Source of the DNA: a virus
Lineage: Duplodnaviria > Heunggongvirae > Uroviricota > Caudoviricetes
Virus record (IMG/VR): IMGVR_UViG_2562617057_000003
Length of the DNA stretch: 47,732 bases
Direction: 5' to 3' (one strand)
The notes beneath the pieces were generated by a model, which ran no database searches, was not told where the DNA came from, and saw nothing but the letters and a program-made list of their open reading frames with translations. The position numbers were made by a program, and so were the translations under genes. Below, in pieces: positions 34,256 through 46,314 of the stretch (positions are counted from its first letter, which is position 1; the number at the start of each line of letters is the position of its first letter).

Positions 34256-34534
34256 TTACCTCCAGATTCGTTGCTGGTATGTGCGGGATGAACGCGGTGG
34301 GCGTTCGGAGTAAGGGAGTCTGACTGAGATTATCCAGTGACGGTAGTCGAGGCTAAGAGCTTTCTTAACCTCGTATCCGCGCCTGCGGTAACACTGAATT
34401 ATCCATTCCGCCTGCTCTTCAGTGCATGGAGGATGCTGGAACCAGTCTGATTTGAATGCGTGAAAACGCCGTCCGCACCTACTGGCAAAGACGGCAGAAT
34501 CATTAGAATTGTGTAATTTGGTATCGTGCGCCAT
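34256..34534 (-). CDS. Hypothetical protein (about 92 aa); start uncertain
   Basis: ORF-track ORF extends to 34663, but 34600-34701 carries two terminator-like hairpins, so the ATG at 34534 is preferred. Confidence 0.45.
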   Translation of the reverse strand: MAHDTKLHNSNDSAVFASRCGRRFHAFKSDWFQHPPCTEEQAEWIIQCYRRRGYEVKKALSLDYRHWIISVRLPYSERPPRSSRTYQQRIWR

Positions 34535-34599
34535 CGGTTGTCTCTGCTGGCGCAGCAGGTGCCAGTTGTTCAGGCTGGCGTGCGAATTGTAAACCAGAA

Positions 34600-34633
34600 T
34601 GCCAGGAAAAAACAAAACCCGCCGAAGCGGGTT
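34600..34633 (-). terminator. Intrinsic terminator downstream of hok
   Basis: Minus strand stem CCCGC/GCGGG with a 4-nt loop followed by TTTTGTTTTTTCC; a second perfect 9-bp hairpin GGCGAGGGA-TTTC-TCCCTCGCC at 34680-34701 abuts the hok stop. Confidence 0.6.
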
Positions 34634-34701
34634 ACGTGCGGGTGCGTTGAGGATGCCTGACACATCAGAGGTGGCGAGGGATTTCTCCCTCGCCTGGTCT
34701 C

Positions 34702-34857
34702 TTACTCCTCAGGTTCGTAAGCTGTGAAGACAGCGACCTCCGTCTGGCCGGTTCGGATTCGTACCTCGCAGAGGTCTTTCCTCGTTACCAGTGCCGTCAC
34801 AATGACGGTAATACAGATGACGATCAGGGCGACTAACATCGCCTTTTGCTGCTTCAT
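34702..34857 (-). CDS. hok: Hok/Gef-family type I toxin
   Basis: 51 aa MKQQKAMLVALIVICITVIVTALVTRKDLCEVRIRTGQTEVAVFTAYEPEE, near-identical to E. coli HokD/RelF-type toxins. Confidence 0.9.
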   Translation of the reverse strand: MKQQKAMLVALIVICITVIVTALVTRKDLCEVRIRTGQTEVAVFTAYEPEE

Positions 34858-35068
34858 AGCCTGCTTCTCCTTGCCTTTCGGCACGTAAGAGGCTAACCTA
34901 GATTTGCCGTTCATAGATTGAGCCTCAGATTAATGTTAAGCGTCTTGCCGGACGCGTAATGTTAACTGGGGCTTTTCTCTATCTGCCTTTTGGTGTTCAT
35001 GCCTGAGACAGATAGCCTCAAGCACCCGCTGCAATTCTACTTAACTCTCCTTTTCCCGCAAACCGTTT
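34858..35068 (-). promoter_or_regulatory. hok mRNA leader (mok-like upstream ATG; expected site of antisense Sok RNA)
   Basis: About 210-nt leader with an in-frame upstream ATG at 34914 and several hairpins, as in hok/sok loci; Sok promoter not pinpointed. Confidence 0.45.
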
Positions 35069-35152
35069 TTATCCCCAGCGGCAAATCGAATACACCACCA
35101 GCGCCACCGCCAGTGCGATTCCTACCGTTGTGAATGCTTCAGACCAGGTCAT
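35069..35152 (-). CDS. Putative 27-aa hydrophobic peptide coupled to the upstream 171-aa gene
   Basis: ATG overlaps the upstream stop (ATGA); MTWSEAFTTVGIALAVALVVYSICRWG, a single TM-like helix; not in ORF track (under 60 aa). Confidence 0.35.
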   Translation of the reverse strand: MTWSEAFTTVGIALAVALVVYSICRWG

Positions 35153-35664
35153 CGTAAAACATCCTCCACGCTTATCAGTCCATTTCGTTTCAGGTAATCC
35201 ATCGCCTTCTCCGGTAATTTGCAGTCCGGCTGAGCTTTTTTCAGTTGACTGACCAGTCGTTTAACCCACATTGTTAATTCGCTAACCTGATTACTGGATG
35301 CTAGTGGATTGTCAGCTTTACCCAGAATGGCAGCACAGCAGGCCTCTTTGAGTACCCAATCAACAGCATCTTTCCATGCTCCTGTTTCAGCTGGCGGATT
35401 TTCACGCTTTACCTGTTCATAAAAGCGCACGGCTTTAACCAGTCCTTCTGATGTCACCGGGACTGGCGGGGCAGTGAATAAGGCCTGAATCTCATAGCTC
35501 GGCCTGTCGTTGCAATCCTCTTTTGTCGGTACATATTTCCAGTCACCAACCCACATCTTCTCCTGAAAGTCCGTAACGCTTTTTTTCACATAGCGATATC
35601 GCCATGCAACTGGTTTTGCCTGCCCTACCGTTTCATGCCCTTCCTGATAATTAATCTCGCTCAT
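35149..35664 (-). CDS. Hypothetical 171-aa nin-region protein
   Basis: Long ORF with ATG start coupled to the upstream small ORF (ATGA overlap); no family recognised. Confidence 0.65.
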   Translation of the reverse strand: MSEINYQEGHETVGQAKPVAWRYRYVKKSVTDFQEKMWVGDWKYVPTKEDCNDRPSYEIQALFTAPPVPVTSEGLVKAVRFYEQVKRENPPAETGAWKDAVDWVLKEACCAAILGKADNPLASSNQVSELTMWVKRLVSQLKKAQPDCKLPEKAMDYLKRNGLISVEDVLR

Positions 35665-35837
35665 TCATCGCCCCACTCATCACAATATGCTTCGACCGGT
35701 GTTTTTCCTGCTTCATAATCATCACGCCATGCATCGGCATCAGCAGCACTTCCACCGCGTAACTCTGCATAGGCCATTAACAGTTCATGCCATTCTTTAA
35801 AACTGACGTTGTATTTAGTTGAACCAAAATCAGCCAT
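35661..35837 (-). CDS. Putative 58-aa protein (not in ORF track)
   Basis: MADFGSTKYNVSFKEWHELLMAYAELRGGSAADADAWRDDYEAGKTPVEAYCDEWGDE; fills the gap between flanking ORFs and its stop overlaps the next ATG (ATGA). Confidence 0.45.
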   Translation of the reverse strand: MADFGSTKYNVSFKEWHELLMAYAELRGGSAADADAWRDDYEAGKTPVEAYCDEWGDE

Positions 35838-36012
35838 TTTGTTCTTCCTCTTCGTCTTTTATTTCGTGATATGAATAATTGCAGTAGTTAAAGAAAATTT
35901 CTTTTGCTTCGTCATGAATTTCATCAGGTGTTGCGTCATCGTCCACTTCGAATACATCCTCAAAATCTCCACCAGCTATTCCAGTTTCAATAATTATTTT
36001 GAACTTTCGCAT
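35830..36012 (-). CDS. Hypothetical 60-aa acidic protein
   Basis: ATG start; very acidic C-terminus (DEEEEQNG). Confidence 0.45.
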   Translation of the reverse strand: MRKFKIIIETGIAGGDFEDVFEVDDDATPDEIHDEAKEIFFNYCNYSYHEIKDEEEEQNG

Positions 36013-36107
36013 TTCACTACCGCCCTTTCAGGCGGCCTCCTGATGTTCTGAGGGTGCAGAAATCCCTCCGGTTAAGGATTAAATTTTATTTGCTGTGCTA
36101 AATTTAA

Positions 36108-36563
36108 TTATTCAGTTTTTATTCCTGCTCTCAAAACAGCCTCTGCCATTCTGATATCCGGATTTTCTGAAATCATCTTTTCCGGCGAGTCGCAATCACC
36201 ACCACATTCAGTTATGCGTTCATGACCAAAACGAATTGTGGTTTTGTGCGCATTAATCATTTGTGTAAGCGCATCTGTCAATTCTGCAATGCGTTTGTCT
36301 TTAACTTCCAGCTCTTTCAGTAAAGCCAGTACGTCAGGATCGCTAACATCAACGACGGTTACGCGCGATTTCAGGTAATGCTCATCCGCAAAAGTTCGAC
36401 CAGTTTTAAAATATCCATCATCCCCCTCACCTGTGCAGGCATACACAATATGCGTTCTGGAAAATATGCGCTGTATCGACATTTCATCGCCACAAACAGG
36501 ACATTCCGGCACCTGAATTGGTGAATAACGTTCACGTAATGCCTGGTAATTAGTCTTGCACAC
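36108..36563 (-). CDS. Hypothetical 151-aa protein with Cys-rich zinc-finger-like motifs
   Basis: GTG start with RBS AGGAG 7 nt upstream; CPVCG near the N-terminus and CGGDCD near the C-terminus. Confidence 0.6.
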   Translation of the reverse strand: MCKTNYQALRERYSPIQVPECPVCGDEMSIQRIFSRTHIVYACTGEGDDGYFKTGRTFADEHYLKSRVTVVDVSDPDVLALLKELEVKDKRIAELTDALTQMINAHKTTIRFGHERITECGGDCDSPEKMISENPDIRMAEAVLRAGIKTE

Positions 36564-36849
36564 TGGCTGTCTCCTGAAAAATCACCGCATGCCCCAGTTT
36601 CTCCGCCAGCGCCAGTTCTGCCTTAGCGCCTGCCGACCGATGCCAGCCTTTCAGCATGTAAATCGTATCCACACAGCGGAGCATCGCCGTACAAATATCC
36701 ATGTACTGCGCCTGTGTCAGCCCACCAGGAAGCACTGCCGGATTCAACACCGTGCACCCTTTCTGTTTCAGCTTCTCTTCCGCCTCGTGAAATGCCTCAC
36801 GGTTGAAATTTTTATACCCGGTCATCGGCCCTGCGATATAAACCCTCAT
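36550..36849 (-). CDS. DUF4406-like protein (nucleoside deoxyribosyltransferase-like fold)
   Basis: 99 aa MRVYIAGPMTGYKNFNREAFHEAEEKLKQKGCTVLNPA...; ATGA coupling to the upstream gene. Confidence 0.7.
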   Translation of the reverse strand: MRVYIAGPMTGYKNFNREAFHEAEEKLKQKGCTVLNPAVLPGGLTQAQYMDICTAMLRCVDTIYMLKGWHRSAGAKAELALAEKLGHAVIFQETASVQD

Positions 36850-37265
36850 ATCGTTGCTCCGTTATTACCCCTGTAAAACATCAAAACTCGCTGCATAACT
36901 TCACTTCTCCGGCACTCGCGACAGATTATGTTCTGTCGTCTGTTGTAACGACGTATTTCTCCGTCTGGTAATGACCAGATAAGGTCAGGATCAACCACAA
37001 CCGGTTTCCTCACCTTTACTCTCGAGAGTTTTTTGCGGGCGCTTTGCCAGTCCTTGCGAGCCTGTTCAGACGGGAATAAGCCGTAGCCAGAATTATATAC
37101 ATCACCACTTGCGACCAGTTCCATGCATAAGCGACCGACAGACGCACGACTGATACCTGTTTCATCTGACAACTGCCGAATCGTGACCCGACCGTCCTGA
37201 TGCACGAGTTCCACAATTCGCGTCTTCAGTTCTTCCCGCTGTTCGGGAGTAAAAGGTTTCGCCAT
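36846..37265 (-). CDS. Hypothetical 139-aa HTH-containing protein
   Basis: Strong RBS AGGAGG 4 nt upstream; HTH-like segment VTIRQLSDETGISRASVGRL. Confidence 0.65.
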   Translation of the reverse strand: MAKPFTPEQREELKTRIVELVHQDGRVTIRQLSDETGISRASVGRLCMELVASGDVYNSGYGLFPSEQARKDWQSARKKLSRVKVRKPVVVDPDLIWSLPDGEIRRYNRRQNIICRECRRSEVMQRVLMFYRGNNGATI

Positions 37266-38032: not shown

Positions 38033-38998
38033 TTACCCCCTGAACCCCGGCGGTATTTCAGTATCCGGTTCAGAAATGTGATTCACGCAACGCTGTACAG
38101 GCGAACGCCCCAGACGAATAACCAGCTCATCCCATTTTTCGCGAAGCTTTGACGGGCTCATGACGTTTTTTACCCAGAATGGATCCCGCTGTACCCGACC
38201 AAACATTTCGCAAATTTGTCTGTGAGTTCTGCCATCCAGCATCCGCATTGTGCGCACGTCGTTGGCCCATGCGGTCCAGTTGGGTTCTTTCGGTCGCGAA
38301 ATCTCGCCATCATCGCTGGCGGCCTGCTCGTAAAGACTCACGATTCGCCCCCAGAACCACTGCGCACACGCCAAATCTTCCTGGCTGCCCCACTGGCGTT
38401 TTTTCGCACTGAACACAACCGCGCCAGGGTGTCGGGTTAAAAAATCCTGTTCAACCGTCTGCGGGTCCGGTTGCGAAGCTTCCGGACGAGAAGTCTTTTT
38501 ATTCTCTGTAGTAATCTCTGTTGTATTCTCTGTAAGATCATCAGGCCATTTTGACCCGATGACATTGGGTCGTTTTGAACCAATGGAGCGTGCCATTTTG
38601 GCCTCTTCCATCGTGTCATTTTGACCTGATGGAGCAGCGCATTTTGACCTGATGGATTCGCTCACTTTGCCACCATCTAAAAGCTCGCTCTCGTAATTAA
38701 TCGTGTAAAAATTAGTCATATCACGCTTTGATTTGTTGAGCTTTTCGCAACGCAAAAGCCCCAGCGTTTTCAGACTTGCAAATGCGCGTTTTAACGTTGA
38801 CTCTGACCAGAACGGGAACTGCTCCAGCCATTGTTCTGTTGTGTTATAAATCCAGCGAACACCATCACATTCCATGCCGGAACCGGTATCTCTCAACCAG
38901 TAATGCAACTGCTGCAACACGATGGCTTCATTCAGACCAATTTTCATCGCCAGCTGCGTGTTTATAACCAGCGGGCGTTCAGCAAAAAGGAGCTTCAT
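38033..38998 (-). CDS. Replication initiation protein (O-like / YdaU-like), contains the origin iterons
   Basis: 321 aa; N-terminal HTH-like domain; immediately upstream of the DnaC-like gene; iterons inside the coding sequence. Confidence 0.8.
   Translation of the reverse strand: MKLLFAERPLVINTQLAMKIGLNEAIVLQQLHYWLRDTGSGMECDGVRWIYNTTEQWLEQFPFWSESTLKRAFASLKTLGLLRCEKLNKSKRDMTNFYTINYESELLDGGKVSESIRSKCAAPSGQNDTMEEAKMARSIGSKRPNVIGSKWPDDLTENTTEITTENKKTSRPEASQPDPQTVEQDFLTRHPGAVVFSAKKRQWGSQEDLACAQWFWGRIVSLYEQAASDDGEISRPKEPNWTAWANDVRTMRMLDGRTHRQICEMFGRVQRDPFWVKNVMSPSKLREKWDELVIRLGRSPVQRCVNHISEPDTEIPPGFRG
38500..38700. repeat. Putative origin of replication: three ATTCTCTGT repeats (38501-38535) plus at least five CATTTTGACCTGATGGA-type iterons (38547-38680) and an AT-rich segment
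   Basis: CATTTTGACC at 38547 and CATTTTGACCTGATGGA at 38617 and 38640, with variants at 38572, 38594 and 38662. Confidence 0.65.
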
Positions 38999-39019
38999 CC
39001 CCTCCCCCAGAACACGTTA

Positions 39020-39445
39020 TCAATGCACCACCACGGCATTTCCCGCCGGACCACCACGATTCATCTGATTGAAACCAGCAATTACCACCGCGACAAGTTC
39101 ATCAGCGTCTCTCACCAATCGTTCATGCGTCTCCACCAGTTCCCGAAAATAAGCGGAACTGTGGCTGCGCATCCAGGCCACCAGCGGAGGTGGCATAGCC
39201 TTTTCGATCGCAGGTAACAACGCCTGAATTTTTTCAACCGCATCAGGAGTGTCTTTCTCCACCCAGCGGAATATTTTCTGTGTATTACGGGCCAGGGCTT
39301 CCGGATGGCTGTCGTCGTACAGTTCAGGGAACGTCATCCCCAGTTCGAAATAAGTCCGGGCTATTTCAGCTGCAGGAACTTTCTCACCATCAGGGTATGC
39401 CCAGGCATTCATCGCCATGCGGATGTGTTCATGCTTGATTTTCAT
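39020..39445 (-). CDS. YdaT-like protein (cII-position regulator)
   Basis: 141 aa starting MKIKHEHI...; RBS GGAGG 7 nt upstream; follows the cro-like gene. Confidence 0.6.
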   Translation of the reverse strand: MKIKHEHIRMAMNAWAYPDGEKVPAAEIARTYFELGMTFPELYDDSHPEALARNTQKIFRWVEKDTPDAVEKIQALLPAIEKAMPPPLVAWMRSHSSAYFRELVETHERLVRDADELVAVVIAGFNQMNRGGPAGNAVVVH

Positions 39446-39448
39446 GAA

Positions 39449-39730
39449 TCAACCTCCATCAGCCTTTTTGGTGTTAAGTTCATATTTGTGACGTGAAGGA
39501 GACGTGATTCCAGTGTATTCGGGCCATATAAGATCCCAGTCATTAGGTCTCAATTCTCGTCTTGTAACATGTCCTCCAGTTTCTGCTTCTATCATCAACG
39601 CACGAACAGGAGACACAGGTGAAGTTCCAGATGCCATTTGGGACAAGAAAGACGGAGACACACCAAGATTGGTCGCAAATTTTTTTGCTTCTCCAGTTTT
39701 TAATGATTTGATGAATTCCTTTAGCGTCAT
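39449..39730 (-). CDS. Cro-like / YdaS-like HTH regulator
   Basis: 93 aa, HTH KFATNLGVSPSFLSQMASGT; first gene of the rightward operon, divergent from the repressor. Confidence 0.72.
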   Translation of the reverse strand: MTLKEFIKSLKTGEAKKFATNLGVSPSFLSQMASGTSPVSPVRALMIEAETGGHVTRRELRPNDWDLIWPEYTGITSPSRHKYELNTKKADGG

Positions 39731-39765
39731 AATTTTTATCTCAGCACATTTAGAACAAGTAAAAG

Positions 39766-39826
39766 TTTATACGCAACTAAATAAACCAGTCAAGTATTTG
39801 CTTGTTTTGCGATTACTAAAGATAAT
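39766..39826. promoter_or_regulatory. Back-to-back divergent promoters: cro-type (minus) and repressor-type (plus, leaderless)
   Basis: Minus: TTGACT (39793-39788) - 16 nt - TATAAA (39771-39766). Plus: TTGCTT (39798-39803) - 17 nt - GATAAT (39821-39826), predicted start about 39833 = A of the repressor ATG. Confidence 0.55.
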
Positions 39827-39832
39827 GCATGT

Positions 39833-40204
39833 ATGGAAACAAAAGAGATTCGGCGTTTACGCCTCAAAGAGTGGTTCAAAGACAGGACTTTGCCGCCTAA
39901 AGAGAAAAGTTACTTATCTCAGTTAATGAGTGGTAAAGCTACGTTTGGCGAAAAGGCAGCTAGACGTATTGAGCAAACATATGGGATGCCTGGGGGGTAT
40001 CTTGATATGGAACCTGAAGATACAACAGAATCTCCGTCATCAAGATCTATGGCATTAACTCCTAACCAATTGGAATTGTTGCAAATATTTAGTGCTTTTC
40101 CTGACGCTGAGCAGCAGGAAATCATAAAAGAGCTAAGAAACAAAAAAGAGGCAATGGAAGATCTTGTTGCACGTTGGTTGGCGCGGCAAGGTCGCCGAGC
40201 CTGA
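39833..40204 (+). CDS. DicA-like prophage repressor (HTH_XRE)
   Basis: 123 aa; METKEIRRLRLKEW... HTH, and C-terminal TPNQLELLQIFSAFPDAEQQ as in E. coli DicA. Confidence 0.72.
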   Translation: METKEIRRLRLKEWFKDRTLPPKEKSYLSQLMSGKATFGEKAARRIEQTYGMPGGYLDMEPEDTTESPSSRSMALTPNQLELLQIFSAFPDAEQQEIIKELRNKKEAMEDLVARWLARQGRRA

Positions 40205-40234
40205 CGTGATACTTACTAAAACAAGAGATATCAG

Positions 40235-40696
40235 ATGGGCGTACTCGAAATCAGTGCTCTTAGAATTAAGATGCTTCTATTGGCAAAAGGCTGGAGCCAA
40301 GCAGAACTTGCGCGCAGAATTGGTATTGCTCAACAATCCGTCCAAAGGTGGGTTTGTGGCATCTCAAGCCCTACAGCAGCCAACCTAGATAAACTATCTG
40401 ATGTGACTGGATTTCCTCAGTATTGGTTTTTCTTACCATTAAATGAAGAAAATAAGGACAGGGCACAGGATATATTAAAAATAACCCCTACGCAAAAGGA
40501 ACTACTTCAAACATTTGAGGCATTTCCAGAGGAAGAGCAACAGCAAATGCTTAAAGATATGAAGGAGAAAAAAGAGACAATGGATCGTATAGTTGCAAAG
40601 TGGCTAGCAGCACAACAAAAAGTTCCTAGGCAGGATTACCAGTACTTACAAGACGAGGTTCACCATGAACACGGCCCTTTCACCAATGGTTTCTGA
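40235..40696 (+). CDS. paaR: Second DicA-like HTH regulator (PaaR-like regulator of the adjacent toxin-antitoxin pair)
   Basis: 153 aa; HTH IKMLLLAKGWSQAELARRIGIAQQSVQRW; C-terminal domain paralogous to the upstream repressor; 3' end overlaps the antitoxin gene. Confidence 0.65.
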   Translation: MGVLEISALRIKMLLLAKGWSQAELARRIGIAQQSVQRWVCGISSPTAANLDKLSDVTGFPQYWFFLPLNEENKDRAQDILKITPTQKELLQTFEAFPEEEQQQMLKDMKEKKETMDRIVAKWLAAQQKVPRQDYQYLQDEVHHEHGPFTNGF

Positions 40697-40856
40697 ATTT
40701 GAAACCGTCGAGCAAGAAAATAGTTATAACGAATGGCTGCGTGCAAAAGTGGCCGCAAGCCTTGCTGATCCACGTCCAGCCATTCCCCATGACGAAGTTG
40801 AACGCAGAATGGCTGAACGCTTTGCTAACATGCGCAAGGAACGGAGCAAACAGTAA
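40665..40856 (+). CDS. paaA: PaaA-type antitoxin (ParE-associated antitoxin)
   Basis: 63 aa MNTALSPMVSEFETVEQENSYNEWLRAKVAASLADPRPAIPHDEVERRMAERFANMRKERSKQ; stop abuts the toxin ATG (TAAATG). Confidence 0.72.
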   Translation: MNTALSPMVSEFETVEQENSYNEWLRAKVAASLADPRPAIPHDEVERRMAERFANMRKERSKQ

Positions 40857-41144
40857 ATGTTACCGGTTTTATGGCTCGAAAGCGCAGATGCCGACCTAGA
40901 TAATATAACCAGCTATATTGCACGTTTTGACATAGATGCGGCAGAACGTTTGTGGAAACGCTTAAGGACTTGCGTCCTGCCATTATCTGAACATCCGTAT
41001 TTATACCCGCCAAGCGACAGAGTGCCTGGTTTGCGTGAAATTGTAGCTCACCCCAATTACATCATTCTGTACCGCGTGACAATTTCAGGCATTGAAATTG
41101 TTAACGTAGTTCACGCCCGCCGACAGTTCCCTGTAACACCTTAA
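40857..41144 (+). CDS. parE: ParE/RelE-family toxin
   Basis: 95 aa MLPVLWLESADADLDNITSYIARFDIDAAERLWKRL...IEIVNVVHARRQFP, ParE-like. Confidence 0.82.
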   Translation: MLPVLWLESADADLDNITSYIARFDIDAAERLWKRLRTCVLPLSEHPYLYPPSDRVPGLREIVAHPNYIILYRVTISGIEIVNVVHARRQFPVTP

Positions 41145-41151
41145 TCCCCCT

Positions 41152-41177
41152 AAGCCCCTCTCAAGAGGGGTTATTCC
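41152..41177 (+). terminator. Hairpin terminator after parE
   Basis: CCCCTC-TCAA-GAGGGG hairpin followed by TTATT. Confidence 0.45.
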
Positions 41178-41407
41178 TGCCAAAGAGTTAAGTTAAATAT
41201 TGACTGTTTAGTTTATTTTTGCATAAACTAGTTTTACCAACCCACTCCGCCCCACAGAACGCAGGGCAATACTTCGAGTTACCAGGCAGTGGTCAGGGGT
41301 TAAGTAGCCAGCCCGAGGCGTAAGAACATGACGGCAGGGTTCAATCTTTAACTATGCAGCAGGTTTTTTGTTCCGCCACCCCGGCGTTAAGGGGAAATGA
41401 GGTCAGC

Positions 41408-41560
41408 ATGGATACTATCGATCTTGGCAACAACGAATCTCTGGTGTGCGGCGTGTTCCCTAACCAGGATGGAACGTTTACCGCCATGACGTATACCAAA
41501 AGCAAAACGTTTAAAACCGAATCTGGCGCGCGTTGCTGGTTAGCCAGAAACACTGACTGA
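41408..41560 (+). CDS. Hypothetical 50-aa early-left protein
   Basis: ATG 41408 with RBS GAGG 5 nt upstream; promoter-like TTGACT-18-TAAACT at about 41210-41240. Confidence 0.4.
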   Translation: MDTIDLGNNESLVCGVFPNQDGTFTAMTYTKSKTFKTESGARCWLARNTD

Positions 41561-41571
41561 TGAGGCTGACG

Positions 41572-41937
41572 ATGGAATTTAAAGATTTACCGTCTGATGT
41601 ACAGAAAACAGCAGCTCATACATTGCATTCTGTGCTGCGAGAAATCGGGAAAGATATTGCAAGCGAGCCAGCAAAAGATCTGGCCCGGAAAATCAAGACC
41701 GCTTTCGTTGAGCTTTATAATGTTGGCACTGACTCTGAAACTGTCGAGACCAAGACCGTAAGTTCACCAATATTCTCACTTGAGCCAAGCGTATTATCAG
41801 GTGAAATATGCACCGAGATTTCCAGCGAACTGCTTCCGGTAATACGAGAAGCAATTCGCCGTCGCGGTTTGGATGGAAGTTATGATCATGACGTTCTGCA
41901 AGTTCTCAGGACAATGGTGACTTCACTGGGGATTTGA
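41572..41937 (+). CDS. Hypothetical 121-aa early-left protein
   Basis: ATG 41572 with RBS GAGG; alternative ATG 41560 overlaps the upstream stop. Confidence 0.5.
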   Translation: MEFKDLPSDVQKTAAHTLHSVLREIGKDIASEPAKDLARKIKTAFVELYNVGTDSETVETKTVSSPIFSLEPSVLSGEICTEISSELLPVIREAIRRRGLDGSYDHDVLQVLRTMVTSLGI

Positions 41938-42106
41938 TCCCTGCGTCCTCTAAGCTTTTGATATAGCGGTCCTCCAAGAAGCGGTAAATTTTGTCGAAAT
42001 CATCTTTTCCCTCTGGTTTATTCAGAGGATTACAGGACCCGTAAGTAGCGGCATACATTTCAACCGTTTTATCAAAAATATAAGAGACAAATTCTTCTTT
42101 AGTCAT
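41906..42106 (-). CDS. Hypothetical 66-aa protein, convergent with and overlapping the preceding gene
   Basis: ATG 42106 with RBS AAGGA 7 nt upstream; MTKEEFVSYIFDKTVEMYAATYGSCNPLNKPEGKDDFDKIYRFLEDRYIKSLEDAGIK. Confidence 0.35.
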   Translation of the reverse strand: MTKEEFVSYIFDKTVEMYAATYGSCNPLNKPEGKDDFDKIYRFLEDRYIKSLEDAGIKSPVKSPLS

Positions 42107-42306
42107 ATAGATTTCCTTCTTGGTTATTCGGGATAAGAAGGATACCACCTCGCCTGACGTGGTTAAAAGCAGGCACACAACGCGAAATGACGCGGCGGTA
42201 AGTATGGCGGAGTTATTCCTTCCCCGTTGAGGACACCGGGTTGTCAGGTTGACCATACGCTTAAGTGACAACCACGCCACAACACTCCATGTTGATTGGT
42301 ACCTTT

Positions 42307-42348
42307 GGCGGCATCAGTTTCATTGCTGGCTGATGTCCGCCCTTTTTA
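42307..42348 (+). terminator. Strong intrinsic terminator (tL-like)
   Basis: GGCGGCATCAG - 12-nt loop - CTGATGtCCGCC followed by CTTTTTAAA. Confidence 0.65.
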
Positions 42349-42834
42349 AAGTGAATTTTGTGATGCGGTGAATGCGGCTCAGCGCACGCGGCACAGTTAA
42401 AAAGCGATTAGTTCCCCCGTATCGGGTGGTTATGGGTTTCCCTGTATCCGGCGTTAATTGTTAACTGGTTAACGTCACCTGGAGGCACCAGGCACCGCAT
42501 CAACAAAGTTCACTTCGGTGATGAAAGGAAAGAGAAAATGTTGAATGTAGCTATTGAAAACCAGAACGGGTGGAATTATAGTGCACCTGCACCTTATAAA
42601 ACGGGTGCCGGGCGTGGAAACCCGAACGTTACTCGAGCGCATAGCCGCGCTGAAGCGGTTTTTTTATGCGTAATGCACAGCTCCATTCAAATTATGGTGG
42701 GATGTGCAGGGCAGTCGCAAGACTGGCCGGGTTCTCGAGTGACCGGTATTTCCACCCCTGTACGTCTCACCACCCTTATGGTCGTGGAAAACCTCGGTGG
42801 TGAGTTAATTAACTTATCACTCGAGGATGCCATC

Positions 42835-43392
42835 ATGGCTACTATCCCTGCCCTTTCTCACCCTGACGTAACCATCGAAAATGGTCGCGCTGTCACTACG
42901 TCTATTGCGATCGCAGAGTTCTTTGGCAAGCGTCACGACAATGTGTTACGTGCCATCGCAAATACTGAATGCTCACCTGAATTTAACGCCCTCAATTTTG
43001 AGGACGTCACCTACACTGACGCCAAAGGCGAAAAACGCCCGATGTACCAAATCACCAAAAACGGCTTCGTTTTCCTGGTGATGGGATTCACTGGCAAAAA
43101 AGCCGCTGCATTTAAAGAAGCCTACATTGCTGAGTTCGATCGCATGGAGGCCGAACTGCGCCAGAATAACACCCCACCTGCTGACAAGATGATTCCGGGT
43201 GATGGTCGCACTCTGGTTGTTCACTTCGACAAATTCGGCAATGTCGAATTCACCGAAACCGTTCCTGATGGCGCACTGGTCTGTACCCTGGAGACTTTCC
43301 GGTTTTATCTGGAAAAACAGGGATGGACTCTTGTTAACCGGGGCGCAATTAAAAATATGACTGTGGAACAATTACTCAAAATTCATTGTTGA
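42835..43392 (+). CDS. Rha-family antirepressor (Ant)
   Basis: 185 aa from ATG 42835 (RBS GAGGA); N-terminal Rha-type ...AVTTSIAIAEFFGKRHDNVLRAIA...; C-terminal Ant-type domain shared with 31592-32152; the ORF-track upstream extension is probably non-coding leader. Confidence 0.8.
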   Translation: MATIPALSHPDVTIENGRAVTTSIAIAEFFGKRHDNVLRAIANTECSPEFNALNFEDVTYTDAKGEKRPMYQITKNGFVFLVMGFTGKKAAAFKEAYIAEFDRMEAELRQNNTPPADKMIPGDGRTLVVHFDKFGNVEFTETVPDGALVCTLETFRFYLEKQGWTLVNRGAIKNMTVEQLLKIHC

Positions 43393-43402
43393 GGACGCAA
43401 TA

Positions 43403-43591
43403 ATGGAGACGTTATTACCAAACGTTAATACGTCTGAAGGTTGTTTTGAAATTGGTGTCACTATCAGTAACCCTGTATTTACTGAAGATGCCATTAACAA
43501 GAGAAAACACGAACGGGAGCTATTAAATAAAATATGCATTGTTTCAATGCTGGCTCGTTTACGTCTGATGCCAAAAGGATGTGCACAATGA
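43403..43591 (+). CDS. Hypothetical 62-aa protein
   Basis: ATG with RBS GAGGA 7 nt upstream; stop overlaps the next ATG (ATGA). Confidence 0.45.
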   Translation: METLLPNVNTSEGCFEIGVTISNPVFTEDAINKRKHERELLNKICIVSMLARLRLMPKGCAQ

Positions 43592-43779
43592 ATACAGTAT
43601 TTGCACTCGTTCTGACGGTTTTTCTTGTTTCCGGTGAACCGGTTGACATGGTTACTGGCGTATACAGCTCAATGAAAGAATGTAGGACTGCCGCAGCGAA
43701 ACAGAAAATTCCCGGTGACTGTTATCCGGTCGATAAAGTTATTCACCAGGATAATATCGAAATCCCGGCAGGTCTTTAA
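43588..43779 (+). CDS. Small predicted secreted protein (63 aa with N-terminal signal peptide)
   Basis: ATG 43588 with RBS AAGGA 8 nt upstream; MNTVFALVLTVFLVSGEPVDM... signal-like N-terminus, two Cys. Confidence 0.45.
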   Translation: MNTVFALVLTVFLVSGEPVDMVTGVYSSMKECRTAAAKQKIPGDCYPVDKVIHQDNIEIPAGL

Positions 43780-43872
43780 AACAGTTCCGTAATAAATATC
43801 CGGTTTCATTCTTATATGCCAGCAATGGCAGGGATTTGTTCACCCTTAAATCTGTGATGAGGTTTATCAATA

Positions 43873-46314
43873 ATGAGCACTGATAAAGAAGAATTTGCAC
43901 TATATTGCGAAGCAAAAAATGACAAAGTAAGAAAACGCCTGGGAATTAAAGGTGGTTTTTACTGGACTACAGCAAAAAAATTATCTGTTGCAATCTCCCG
44001 CTGCATTACCGCAATGGATGACAACGATTATGATGAAGACGACTTTAAAAAACCCGTCCGCGTCAATTTGCCCGTTGTTGACGACCTTCCGCCAGAAGGC
44101 GTGTTTGATACTGAATTCTGCAACCGCTATGAAAAAGGCGGGAAAGATGGCATCACAATGACATTTATCGGCCCTTCCCCCTCTGTTCAGGACAAACCAG
44201 CCAGCACTGACAATACCAACATCAACGGCGAAGACATGACTGAGATTGAGGAGAGCATGCTTCTGCCTGTCTCCGGTCAGGAACTGCCCATTCGTTGGCT
44301 TGCTCAACACGGCAGCGAAAAACCAGTAACGCACGTTTCACGCGACGAACTCCAGGCATTACACATTGCATGGGCTGAAGAACTACCGGCTGTTACTGCC
44401 CTGGCTATTTCGCATAAAACCAGTCTGCTCGACTCGCTGGAGATTCGCGACCTCCACAAACTGGTTCGTGACACTGACAAAATTTTCCCTAATCCTGGTA
44501 ATTCAGACCTGGGACTAATAACTGCTTTTTTCGAAGCATACCTGGACGCTGACTACACTGATCGGGGTCTGCTGACAAAAGAGTGGATGAAAGGAAATCG
44601 TGTTTCACGCATCACCCGCACGGCTTCCGGTGCTAATGCTGGCGGTGGGAACAAAACCGATCGCAATCCGAATTTAGTACACACCCTCGACACACTGGAT
44701 GTGGAGATTGCAGCAGCCACACTTCCGATGGATTTTAATATTTATGAAATTCCGGGCAGCGTTTATCGTCGCGCAAAAGAAGTAGTTCTGAACAAAGAAA
44801 GTCCGTTCAAAGAATGGTCCGCAGCACTTCGTGCAACCCCGGGTATTCTGGACTATTCCCGCGCCGCTATTTTTGCACTTATCCGAAGCGCACACCCTGA
44901 ATTTTATCACTACCCGGGACGCCTTCAGGGGTATATCAACGCCTATTTGACGGAAACTGATCACGAGAACCCCAGCAAGGAAACTCTCACAGCTGCCCGG
45001 CATACGCCGGAAAAAGATATCCTGGAAGAAATTAACCGCGAGGTGGTTACTGAGCGTGAAACAGAAGAAGAAAAACCACAACCATCTGACGCAATGGCAG
45101 GTGAACAGGCAACAACTGAAACAATGGAACCGGATACAACTGAACATGGCCAGAACGCGCAGTCGCTGGATGCTCAGTCGCAGGTGAGTTCCGCTAACCA
45201 AGTAAAAGTCACCGCTGACGAAGTAAACAAAATTATGCAGGCAGCCAATATCAGCCAGCCTGACGCCGATAAGTTACTTGCTGTATCGCGTGGTGAATTT
45301 GTTGAGGGGATTAGCGACCCGAATGATCCGAAATGGGTCAAAGGGATCCAGACTCGCGATTCTGTGAACCAGAACCAGCATGAATCGGAACGGAACGACC
45401 AAAAAGCGGAACAAAACAGCCCAAATGCGTTACAAAACGAGCCAGAAACGAAACAATCCGAACCAGTGGCGCAACAGGAAGTGGAAAAAGTCTGCACCGC
45501 CTGCGGTCAGAGCGGTGGCGGCAACTGCCCTGATTGTGGTGCGGTGATGGGTGACGCAACATGCCTGGAAATATTCGATGGAGAGAATCAGCCTGAAGTT
45601 CAGGAAGATGATCCGGAGGAAATGGAAGGCGCTGAACATCCACACAAGGAGAACACTGGCGGCAATCAGCATCACGATAGCGATAATGAAACTGGCGAGA
45701 CGGCAGATCACTCAATTAAGGTGAACGGTCATCAAGAAATCACATCCACCAGCAGGACGTGTGACCATCTAATGATCGACCTTGAAACCATGGGAAAAAA
45801 TCCTGATGCCCCGATCATCTCAATAGGTGCAATATTTTTCGATCCGCAAACCGGAGATATGGGACCGGAATTTAGTAAGACTATCGATCTGGAAACTGCT
45901 GGCGGAGTCATTGATCGGGACACCATTAAATGGTGGCTTAAGCAATCACGCGAAGCGCAATCTGCCATTATGACCGATGAAATCCCGTTAGATGATGCAC
46001 TGTTACAATTGCAGGAATTTATCGACGAAAACTCCGGTGAATTTTTTGTTCAGGTCTGGGGAAATGGAGCCAACTTCGACAACACGATTTTGCGCCGTTC
46101 ATACGAACGGCAGGGGATCCCCTGCCCGTGGCGTTACTACAACGATCGCGATGTACGCACAATCGTTGAGCTGGGGAAAGCCATAGACTTCGATGCCAGA
46201 ACGGCTATTCCATTCGAAGGTGAGCGCCATAATGCACTTGATGACGCCCGTTACCAGGCAAAATACGTTTCAGTTATCTGGCAAAAACTGATCCCGAGTC
46301 AGGCTGATTTTTAA
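43873..46314 (+). CDS. Large exonuclease: RecE-like N-terminal region, acidic linker with zinc ribbon, C-terminal DnaQ-like (DEDDh) 3'-5' exonuclease domain
   Basis: 813 aa; C-terminal motifs LMIDLETMG (Exo I), WGNGANFD (Exo II), [11 protein letters not shown] (Exo III); [16 protein letters not shown] zinc ribbon; N-terminal segment resembles what I recall of RecE. Confidence 0.75.

Follow-up and report, generated by a model that had tools for sequence, protein, structure and literature searches.

The closest described relatives of the genes considered here belong to the Ead/Ea22 family (PF13935, IPR025153), i.e., lambda Ea22 and P22 Ead. Ea22 is pro-lysogenic in lambda and Stx phages, which is the only published phenotype among the families discussed below, and a tetrameric state has been described for other members of the family from lambda and Stx phages (PMC7093339, PMC10834534). 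Ea22 proteins are also mosaics with portable C-terminal domains (PMC10834534). In position, the closest described systems are the lambda nin region (ninB–ninI) and its equivalents in the Escherichia coli K-12 prophages Rac and Qin. The locus analyzed here resembles these in its site, between the replication genes plus a Ren-like gene and Q, and in its short overlapping open reading frames (ORFs), whose organization is, by sequence, that of translationally coupled genes.

This locus is a block of five minus-strand ORFs of 151, 60, 58, 171, and 27 amino acids (aa) in a 47,732-nucleotide (nt) stretch of viral DNA (Caudoviricetes; IMG/VR record IMGVR_UViG_2562617057_000003), hereafter “the window”, which holds an apparently complete Rac-type lambdoid prophage with head, tail, lysis, Q, replication, and integrase genes. 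We consider it likely that the block represents an ordinary accessory stretch within this prophage's rightward early operon, composed of two recombination modules and encoding dispensable modulators. The block is the positional equivalent of the lambda nin region, and it represents a cassette that is already known, i.e., one made of catalogued families, annotated in RefSeq, and extremely common in E. coli lambdoid prophages.

Composition and spread of the gene block

All five minus-strand ORFs lie exactly where the original prediction, a first reading of the window from its letters alone, had placed them (Table 1). That prediction had described the 151-, 60-, 58-, and 171-aa ORFs as joined by overlaps, and its observations are largely correct except at the first of these junctions. 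The 60- and 58-aa ORFs overlap by 8 nt (ATGGCTGA), and a 4-nt ATGA overlap joins both the 58-aa to the 171-aa ORF and the 171-aa ORF to the 27-aa ORF. There is no overlap between the 151- and 60-aa ORFs, which are separated by a 95-nt spacer. Upstream, the end of the DUF4406 gene shares 14 nt with the start of the 151-aa ORF, and the DUF977 and DUF4406 genes overlap by 4 nt. Given the spacer on one side of the 151-aa ORF and the overlap on the other, the ORFs fall into two runs with predicted coupling, DUF977-DUF4406-151 and 60-58-171-27. At three junctions within the block, stop and start codons thus overlap as expected in a translationally coupled operon, coupling itself being a prediction. 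The 58-aa ORF had been reported as missing from the ORF track, most probably just because it falls below a 60-aa cut-off, the default minimum of the ORF lister. It is nonetheless a real gene, annotated by the Prokaryotic Genome Annotation Pipeline (PGAP) as WP_000753065.1 and displaying an excess of synonymous differences (see below).

The same genes are found, annotated, elsewhere. Positions 35000-36620 are 99.7% identical to E. coli VL7S7, where the four main ORFs are annotated by PGAP as an ead/Ea22-like protein, a DUF7167 protein (WP_001224672.1), and two hypothetical proteins of 58 aa and 171 aa (WP_001290002.1 for the latter). With ≥80% of the segment covered, the leader (i.e., the 95-nt spacer) and the 60- and 58-aa genes were detected in 1757 of 5426 complete E. 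coli genomes, at up to five copies per genome. In the Stx phage ArgO145, a triad of DUF7167, 58-aa, and Ead/Ea22-like (211 aa) genes is part of the leftward operon, flanked by the exo/bet recombination genes and int, which identifies the triad as a mobile accessory module rather than a nin-specific one. A ~93% DNA identity to the module, hok included, was also observed for PP818812.1 (“Actinobacillus phage vB_Apl-pPE4”, labeled Actinobacillus pleuropneumoniae), for which either the host label or the isolate's purity appears questionable.

Judged from these comparisons, the leader and the 60- and 58-aa genes constitute one recombination module. The unit of inheritance can be defined as the leader, the DUF7167 gene, the 58-aa gene, and the N-terminal part of an Ead-like gene, and it moves between leftward and rightward early operons. 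Within the window, a first module would correspond to the 151-aa Ead/Ea22-like gene, for which translational coupling to DUF977 and DUF4406 on its upstream side is predicted. The second, from ~36117 onward, would include the leader, the DUF7167 gene, the gene for a 58-aa three-helix protein, the Ead/Ea22-derived 171-aa mosaic, and probably the 27-aa membrane peptide.

These genes were initially presented as nin-region ORFs without a characterized family, and both parts of this interpretation can now be narrowed. The position is nin-equivalent. Yet none of the five proteins matched the lambda nin region (38500-44800) at E < 1 by tblastn, the same type of search revealed no homologue of the five ORFs in the lambda exo-xis region, K-12 Rac, or K-12 Qin, and a Pfam scan found none of the Nin families among them. 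Combined with the exo-xis location of the ArgO145 triad, this leaves nothing nin-specific about the genes themselves. The genes flanking the block do have homologues in K-12 Rac and Qin (YdaV 81%, HokD 95%, YdfU 77%). None of the ORFs proved to be a known nin protein, but the reason is not that the genes are new. The 151- and 60-aa proteins pass the Pfam thresholds for Ead_Ea22 and DUF7167, respectively, and the 58- and 171-aa proteins are members of PHROGs 519 and 660. Lack of a known function was correctly noted, as PHROGs 368, 1997, 519, and 660 are all labeled “unknown function”.

Protein families and selection

The 151-aa protein matches Pfam PF13935 well above threshold (74.1 vs 27 bits, E = 2.2e-20), with residues 4-105 aligned to profile positions 3-90 of 139 and residues 106-151 outside the match, and it also matches PHROG 368. 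Its N-terminus (MCKTNYQALRE) parallels those of lambda Ea22 (MSEINSQALRE) and P0108 (MSKIDYQALRE), and its counterpart at another locus (L001) is annotated as “ead/Ea22-like family protein”. Family members combine a short N-terminal segment bearing a (S/Y)QALRE motif with a central helical (coiled-coil) region and a variable C-terminal domain. As for lambda Ea22 and P22 Ead, the fit of the 151-aa protein to the family profile covers the N-terminal segment and the central part, and both this protein and the 171-aa protein are encoded by early-operon accessory genes. The C-terminal domains of the window proteins are, in contrast, unrelated to those of Ea22 and Ead, and their genes are found in the rightward, nin-equivalent operon and not in the exo-xis region. 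The start chosen by PGAP for the 99.7%-identical Ead/Ea22-like gene (L001 7509-7913) is 17 codons shorter. Because the Pfam match begins at residue 4, AGGAG lies 7 nt upstream, and the YQALRE motif is included, we favor the GTG start at 36563, and the RefSeq start looks too far downstream.

The 60-aa protein was assigned to DUF7167 through Pfam PF23768 (53.6 vs 24.4 bits; residues 2-53 on profile positions 1-60 of 60) and to PHROG 1997 (2e-30), and a 99%-identical counterpart carries the PGAP name “DUF7167 family protein”. The protein is strongly acidic, with an isoelectric point (pI) of 4.06 and 19 D+E vs 5 K+R. The 58-aa protein is similarly acidic (pI 4.22) and matches PHROG 519 (E = 1.1e-23, 85 bits). 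This match involves residues 1-58 and profile positions 76-137 of 143, i.e., it is restricted to the C-terminal half of the profile. No Pfam, NCBIfam, or PADLOC match was obtained for the 58-aa protein, for which AlphaFold2 predicts a three-helix bundle at a mean predicted local distance difference test score (pLDDT) of 86. Invariant residues in its family are D40-Y41 and A43-G44-K45.

We next evaluated selection on these genes from codon differences, counted from the window across homologous loci (80 IMG/VR loci and annotated loci). For the 60-aa gene, 227 synonymous vs 67 non-synonymous differences were observed, with 13/8/25 variable columns at the three codon positions. The corresponding values for the 58-aa gene were 106 vs 75 differences and 3/9/18 columns. 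By these counts, both genes are clearly under purifying selection, which makes them reasonable and cheap candidates for anti-defence or toxicity screens, and a positive result, if obtained, would give a function to two genes that about a third of sequenced E. coli carry together.

The two genes occur as a pair, with the same 8-nt overlap, in 79 of the 80 IMG/VR loci. Outside E. coli, each is found alone: Klebsiella phages carry DUF7167 without the 58-aa gene and Ackermannviridae carry the 58-aa family without DUF7167, so that an obligate functional pairing is unsupported there and the two families are better viewed as independent domains. The 58-aa family extends to Enterobacter, Serratia, Pectobacterium, Proteus, Morganella, and Salmonella, and was identified in 199 phage records, mostly ~150-kb virulent phages of Salmonella, Klebsiella, and E. 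coli (e.g., Cba120 orf183), compared to only 18 phage records for DUF7167. The Ackermannviridae PHROG 519 proteins, such as Cba120 orf183, are likewise small and acidic, display 55–62% identity to the 58-aa protein, and share a core W-R-(D/E)-D-Y-E-(A/S)-G-K-T-P motif. Their genes, in contrast, are located among hypothetical genes adjoining capsid genes and lack a DUF7167 partner.

The 171-aa protein is a mosaic. Residues 2-171 match PHROG 660 (E = 2.1e-74, profile positions 34-193 of 193), while no Pfam match was found at E ≤ 0.1, Ead_Ea22 included, and no match in NCBIfam or PADLOC. Residues 1-12 correspond to an Ead/Ea22-like N-terminal remnant (MSEINYQ vs MSEINSQ in lambda Ea22), followed by a beta module A (~15-63) and two helical modules, B (~70-115) and C (~120-171). 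Segment-wise database matches suggest that these are exchanged as units: residues 1-115 are found as stand-alone 119-aa proteins or with other C-termini, residues ~60-171 behind unrelated N-termini, and the portion from ~108-122 to 171 is a third exchangeable unit. Of 103 relatives scanned, 12 had 171-aa modules fused to Ead_Ea22 and 4 to DUF551. The modules thus occur as C-terminal parts of Ead_Ea22 proteins; unlike lambda Ea22 and P22 Ead, the 171-aa protein lacks the coiled-coil core and remains below the threshold of the Pfam model. Based on these matches, it is a derivative with Ea22-associated modules and not an Ead/Ea22 member, a pattern in agreement with the published Ea22 mosaics and their portable C-terminal domains (PMC10834534).

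Across the 80 viral loci of IMG/VR, a full-length 171-like gene was detected in 30, the N-terminal part with another C-terminus in 31, and the N- and C-terminal parts in two separate genes, with 0.5–1.7 kb of other genes between them, in 10. The N-terminal part starts at the end of the 58-aa gene in 75 of these loci. In this comparison, the 171-aa gene of the window represents a frequently seen recombinant at a variable cassette site. The comparison also locates this insertion site, between the N-terminal part of the 171-aa gene and module C, the 27-aa ORF, or hok/sok, where different phages hold different genes. At one locus (L031 3174-4891), the cassette comprises ORFs of 176, 87, and 55 aa, the first of which looks acetyltransferase-like when judged by eye, followed by a 114-aa gene carrying module C. 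In E. coli RM8082 (L004), an ORF6N-domain gene lies between a frameshifted 171-aa homologue and hok.

The intercistronic leader

Ribosome-binding sites bridged by a hairpin have precedents in T4 genes 38 and 25. As in these genes, the Shine-Dalgarno sequence of the leader is too far from the start codon, with AGGAGG 23 nt upstream of the AUG of the 60-aa gene, and a stable hairpin in between would restore the spacing. Unlike the T4 genes, the case for the leader is built on sequence and predicted folding, covariation support being weak. Read toward the 60-aa gene, the leader comprises an AATCCTT/AGGGATT hairpin, the AGGAGG, a 16-nt GNRA-loop hairpin (CCGCCY-GAAA-GGGCGG), and 7 nt before the AUG. 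The 3′ hairpin is the sole element retained in the centroid fold. Across the alignment, 97% of cells pair in this hairpin, and one G-C to A-U double change was observed, in two sequences.

The leader is conserved and appears to be inherited with the gene downstream of it. Over 27 variants, the mean column identity of the last 75 nt before the start codon of the 60-aa gene was 96%. In comparisons with four independent loci, homology sets in at 36115-36117, a short way inside the 3′ end of the upstream gene, whether this gene is Ead/Ea22-like or another. Since this breakpoint is constant despite different upstream genes, we conclude that the 95-nt leader travels with the 60-aa gene. At two loci (L022 and L029), only the 3′ hairpin part of the leader is kept, behind unrelated upstream sequence. 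In E. coli strain 139 (L095 1500-1600), the leader is followed by another gene, of 65 aa (MAELTKWLQNTITGIE...), as might be expected if it is a portable translation-initiation or junction element.

Other roles for the leader were considered. The leader had no match to a known RNA in Rfam, and no terminator-like site was detected inside it. The -35 hexamer of the single match to a sigma-70 promoter (36134-36107) falls within the 151-aa gene and is absent from loci with other upstream genes, and no alternative conserved promoter is evident, with an indel in other variants shifting the spacing of an AT-rich stretch further down the leader. The GCCC-GAAA-GGGC sequence resembles boxB of a lambda-type nut site. 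However, its loop has four bases instead of five, no convincing boxA was identified, and the hairpin is positioned directly between Shine-Dalgarno sequence and AUG, ~3.7 kb from the predicted start of the operon, all of which led us, on inspection, to set the nut-site assignment aside.

Expression, function, and flanking genes

For an ordinary accessory segment, the expected expression is as follows. The block would be read on the early transcript from a promoter on the YdaS/Cro side, and ribosomes would start afresh at the 60-aa gene, with the hairpin possibly bringing the AGGAGG to an effective spacing of ~7 nt. Translation of the 58-, 171-, and 27-aa cistrons would follow by termination-reinitiation at their overlaps of 8, 4, and 4 nt. 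In the 151-aa protein, the Ead/Ea22 N-terminal and central regions would be kept next to a C-terminal end of its own, while the 171-aa protein would be built from exchangeable modules of such proteins. Early after infection or induction, the products may act on host or phage proteins, either biasing the choice between lysis and lysogeny, as reported for Ea22, or countering host defences. By analogy, the proteins are most likely dispensable protein-binding modulators. No catalytic signature was found in any of them.

Several observations weigh against this reading. The term “protein-binding modulator” is derived from the lack of enzymatic signatures, the acidity of the proteins, and an analogy with lambda Ea22, and lambda Ea22 itself shows no BLAST-level similarity to the 151-aa protein, their relationship being visible through the family profile only. 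The tight linkage of the 60- and 58-aa genes in E. coli may reflect the recent spread of one module and not a joint function. The 171-aa gene, with 203 synonymous vs 246 non-synonymous differences and 20/20/36 variable columns by codon position, evolves under a fairly relaxed constraint, weaker than for the 60- and 58-aa genes. Its AlphaFold2 model shows a beta module over residues 18-63 (block means 70–76 for 21-60) and helices thereafter, but at a pLDDT of 54 its confidence is too low to reveal a fold or to serve a fold search. For the leader, the pair that covaries in the hairpin is broken in five sequences, and 89 of 500 shuffles reached the observed score, so that covariation lends the hairpin weak support.

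Given this, the block might instead be a dedicated anti-defence or host-takeover operon, in which the acidic 60- and 58-aa proteins would inhibit a host nuclease or immune sensor, as DNA mimics or binders, and the Ead-like mosaic proteins would supply variable specificity. We regard this as unlikely, even though the block sits in the early operon next to a hypervariable cassette site, where other loci have ORF6N, acetyltransferase-like, and HNH genes, and even though virulent Ackermannviridae phages such as Cba120 have retained the 58-aa family. The acidity of both small proteins fits inhibitors of this kind, but small acidic proteins occur widely among phages for a variety of reasons. Similarly, a machine-learning predictor listed PHROG 519 members among candidate anti-CRISPRs (PMC9409062), but this prediction is purely computational. 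Searched against the catalogued defence proteins of PADLOC-DB, with no dedicated anti-defence profile library included, the ORFs yielded nothing significant (best E = 0.034), NCBIfam gave no match for the ORFs, sequence searches of the PDB with four of the proteins returned chance-level or designed-protein matches only, and fold searches of the PDB and BFVD returned only uncharacterized phage proteins or generic helical bundles. A precedent is provided by Oad2, an inhibitor of P2 OLD described in a 2026 preprint, which is encoded in an equivalent, recombination-linked and modular early accessory region of a lambdoid phage and is reported to have relatives fused with EaD/Ea22 (10.64898/2026.07.10.737580). 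It is a precedent only: Oad2 (HK446 gp27) has no Pfam family, and hence none shared with the 151- and 171-aa proteins, and similarity to them was not significant (best E = 7 for the 171-aa protein; E = 0.006 over 50 residues at 26% identity for the 151-aa protein, in a two-sequence search). We give slightly less credence still to the narrower proposal that the DUF7167/PHROG 519 pair and the adjacent Ead/Ea22-derived mosaic gene form an uncharacterized counter-defence or host-takeover module. If they did, the small proteins would inhibit a host nuclease or immune sensor, and the downstream cassette site would be a hotspot at which lambdoid phages swap such genes.

The opposite view, i.e., that the prophage is cryptic and the ORFs, decaying within it, yield no functional products, appears very improbable. 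Of 31 distinct variants of the 60-aa gene, 4 do have internal stops, and the 171-aa gene, which is under relaxed constraint, is also found in frameshifted or fused forms. Against this, the prophage in the window is apparently complete, the synonymous excess is clear in the 60- and 58-aa genes, the same genes are found in isolated and sequenced phages (e.g., ArgO145 and vB_EcoM-606R7), and the 58-aa family is conserved across Enterobacterales as well as in virulent phages.

The 27-aa ORF is less certain as a gene. Based on its sequence, it plausibly encodes a small membrane peptide, with a grand average of hydropathy (GRAVY) of +1.19 and GGAGG 10 nt upstream of its start. The ORF was detected in 33 of the 80 loci, in 27 of them directly after module C, and is intact in 16 of 17 distinct DNA variants; these 16 retain the ATGA overlap, a length of 27 codons, and a hydrophobic helix. 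The remaining variant has a stop at codon 3. Alternatively, the segment could be conserved as DNA or RNA flanking hok/sok, with the open frame incidental, a reading that is possible, if not the one we favor: variable columns by codon position (9/4/14) provide a weak coding signal, nucleotide variation is almost absent from the 3′ half of the ORF, even at synonymous sites, and the Rfam sok/hok-leader match begins 42 nt downstream, at 35027.

Table 1 Features of the block and its surroundings, in order of decreasing coordinates in the window.
Feature	Coordinates	Strand	Remarks
Repressor gene	40235-40696	plus	helix-turn-helix; beginning of early region
DUF977 gene	36846-37265	minus	upstream of DUF4406 gene
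DUF4406 gene	36550-36849	minus	directly upstream of 151-aa ORF
151-aa ORF	36108-36563	minus	GTG start; AGGAG 7 nt upstream; Ead/Ea22-like
Leader, 95 nt	36013-36107	minus	conserved, intercistronic; between 151-aa and 60-aa ORFs
60-aa ORF	35830-36012	minus	DUF7167
58-aa ORF	35661-35837	minus	PHROG 519
171-aa ORF	35149-35664	minus	mosaic protein, PHROG 660
27-aa ORF	35069-35152	minus	hydrophobic; MTWSEAFTTVGIALAVALVVYSICRWG; candidate small membrane peptide
hok/sok locus	34702-35027	minus	complete type I toxin-antitoxin locus
sok	34852-35027		Rfam, 112 bits vs gathering 59
Mok/Hok ORF	34702-34914		Pfam HOK_GEF, 1.5e-23; 95% identical to K-12 HokD
IsrK-like match	34612-34693	minus	sub-threshold, RF01394
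135-aa ORF	34256-34663	minus	GTG start; probably shorter

The surroundings of the block are those of a Rac-type early region. After the repressor gene, the minus strand encodes, in order, a YdaS-like protein in the Cro position, a YdaT-like protein, a DnaT-like replication protein, a DnaC-like loader (81% identical to Rac YdaV), DUF977 (labeled “Ren-like” in PHROGs), and DUF4406, followed by the block. The DUF4406 product matches phrog_355 (nucleoside 2-deoxyribosyltransferases) at 1.3e-44, and Pfam Nuc_deoxyrib_tr below threshold (15.6 vs 28.8 bits). Downstream, the 27-aa ORF is directly followed by the hok/sok locus, then by a YdfU-like DUF968/HNH protein (77% identical to Qin YdfU), RusA, and Q.

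Two further observations concern the segment just after hok. The 135-aa ORF is probably shorter than its GTG start implies, PHROG 1212 covering residues 70-135 only, and in K-12 Qin a stretch 75% identical to its residues 40-135 (L089 13310-13597) lies between ydfU and rem with no coding sequence annotated. The same segment includes a match to the Salmonella prophage small RNA IsrK, below the gathering threshold (27.8 vs 50 bits, E = 0.006), which overlaps both the start of the 135-aa ORF and a terminator-like hairpin at 34633-34616.

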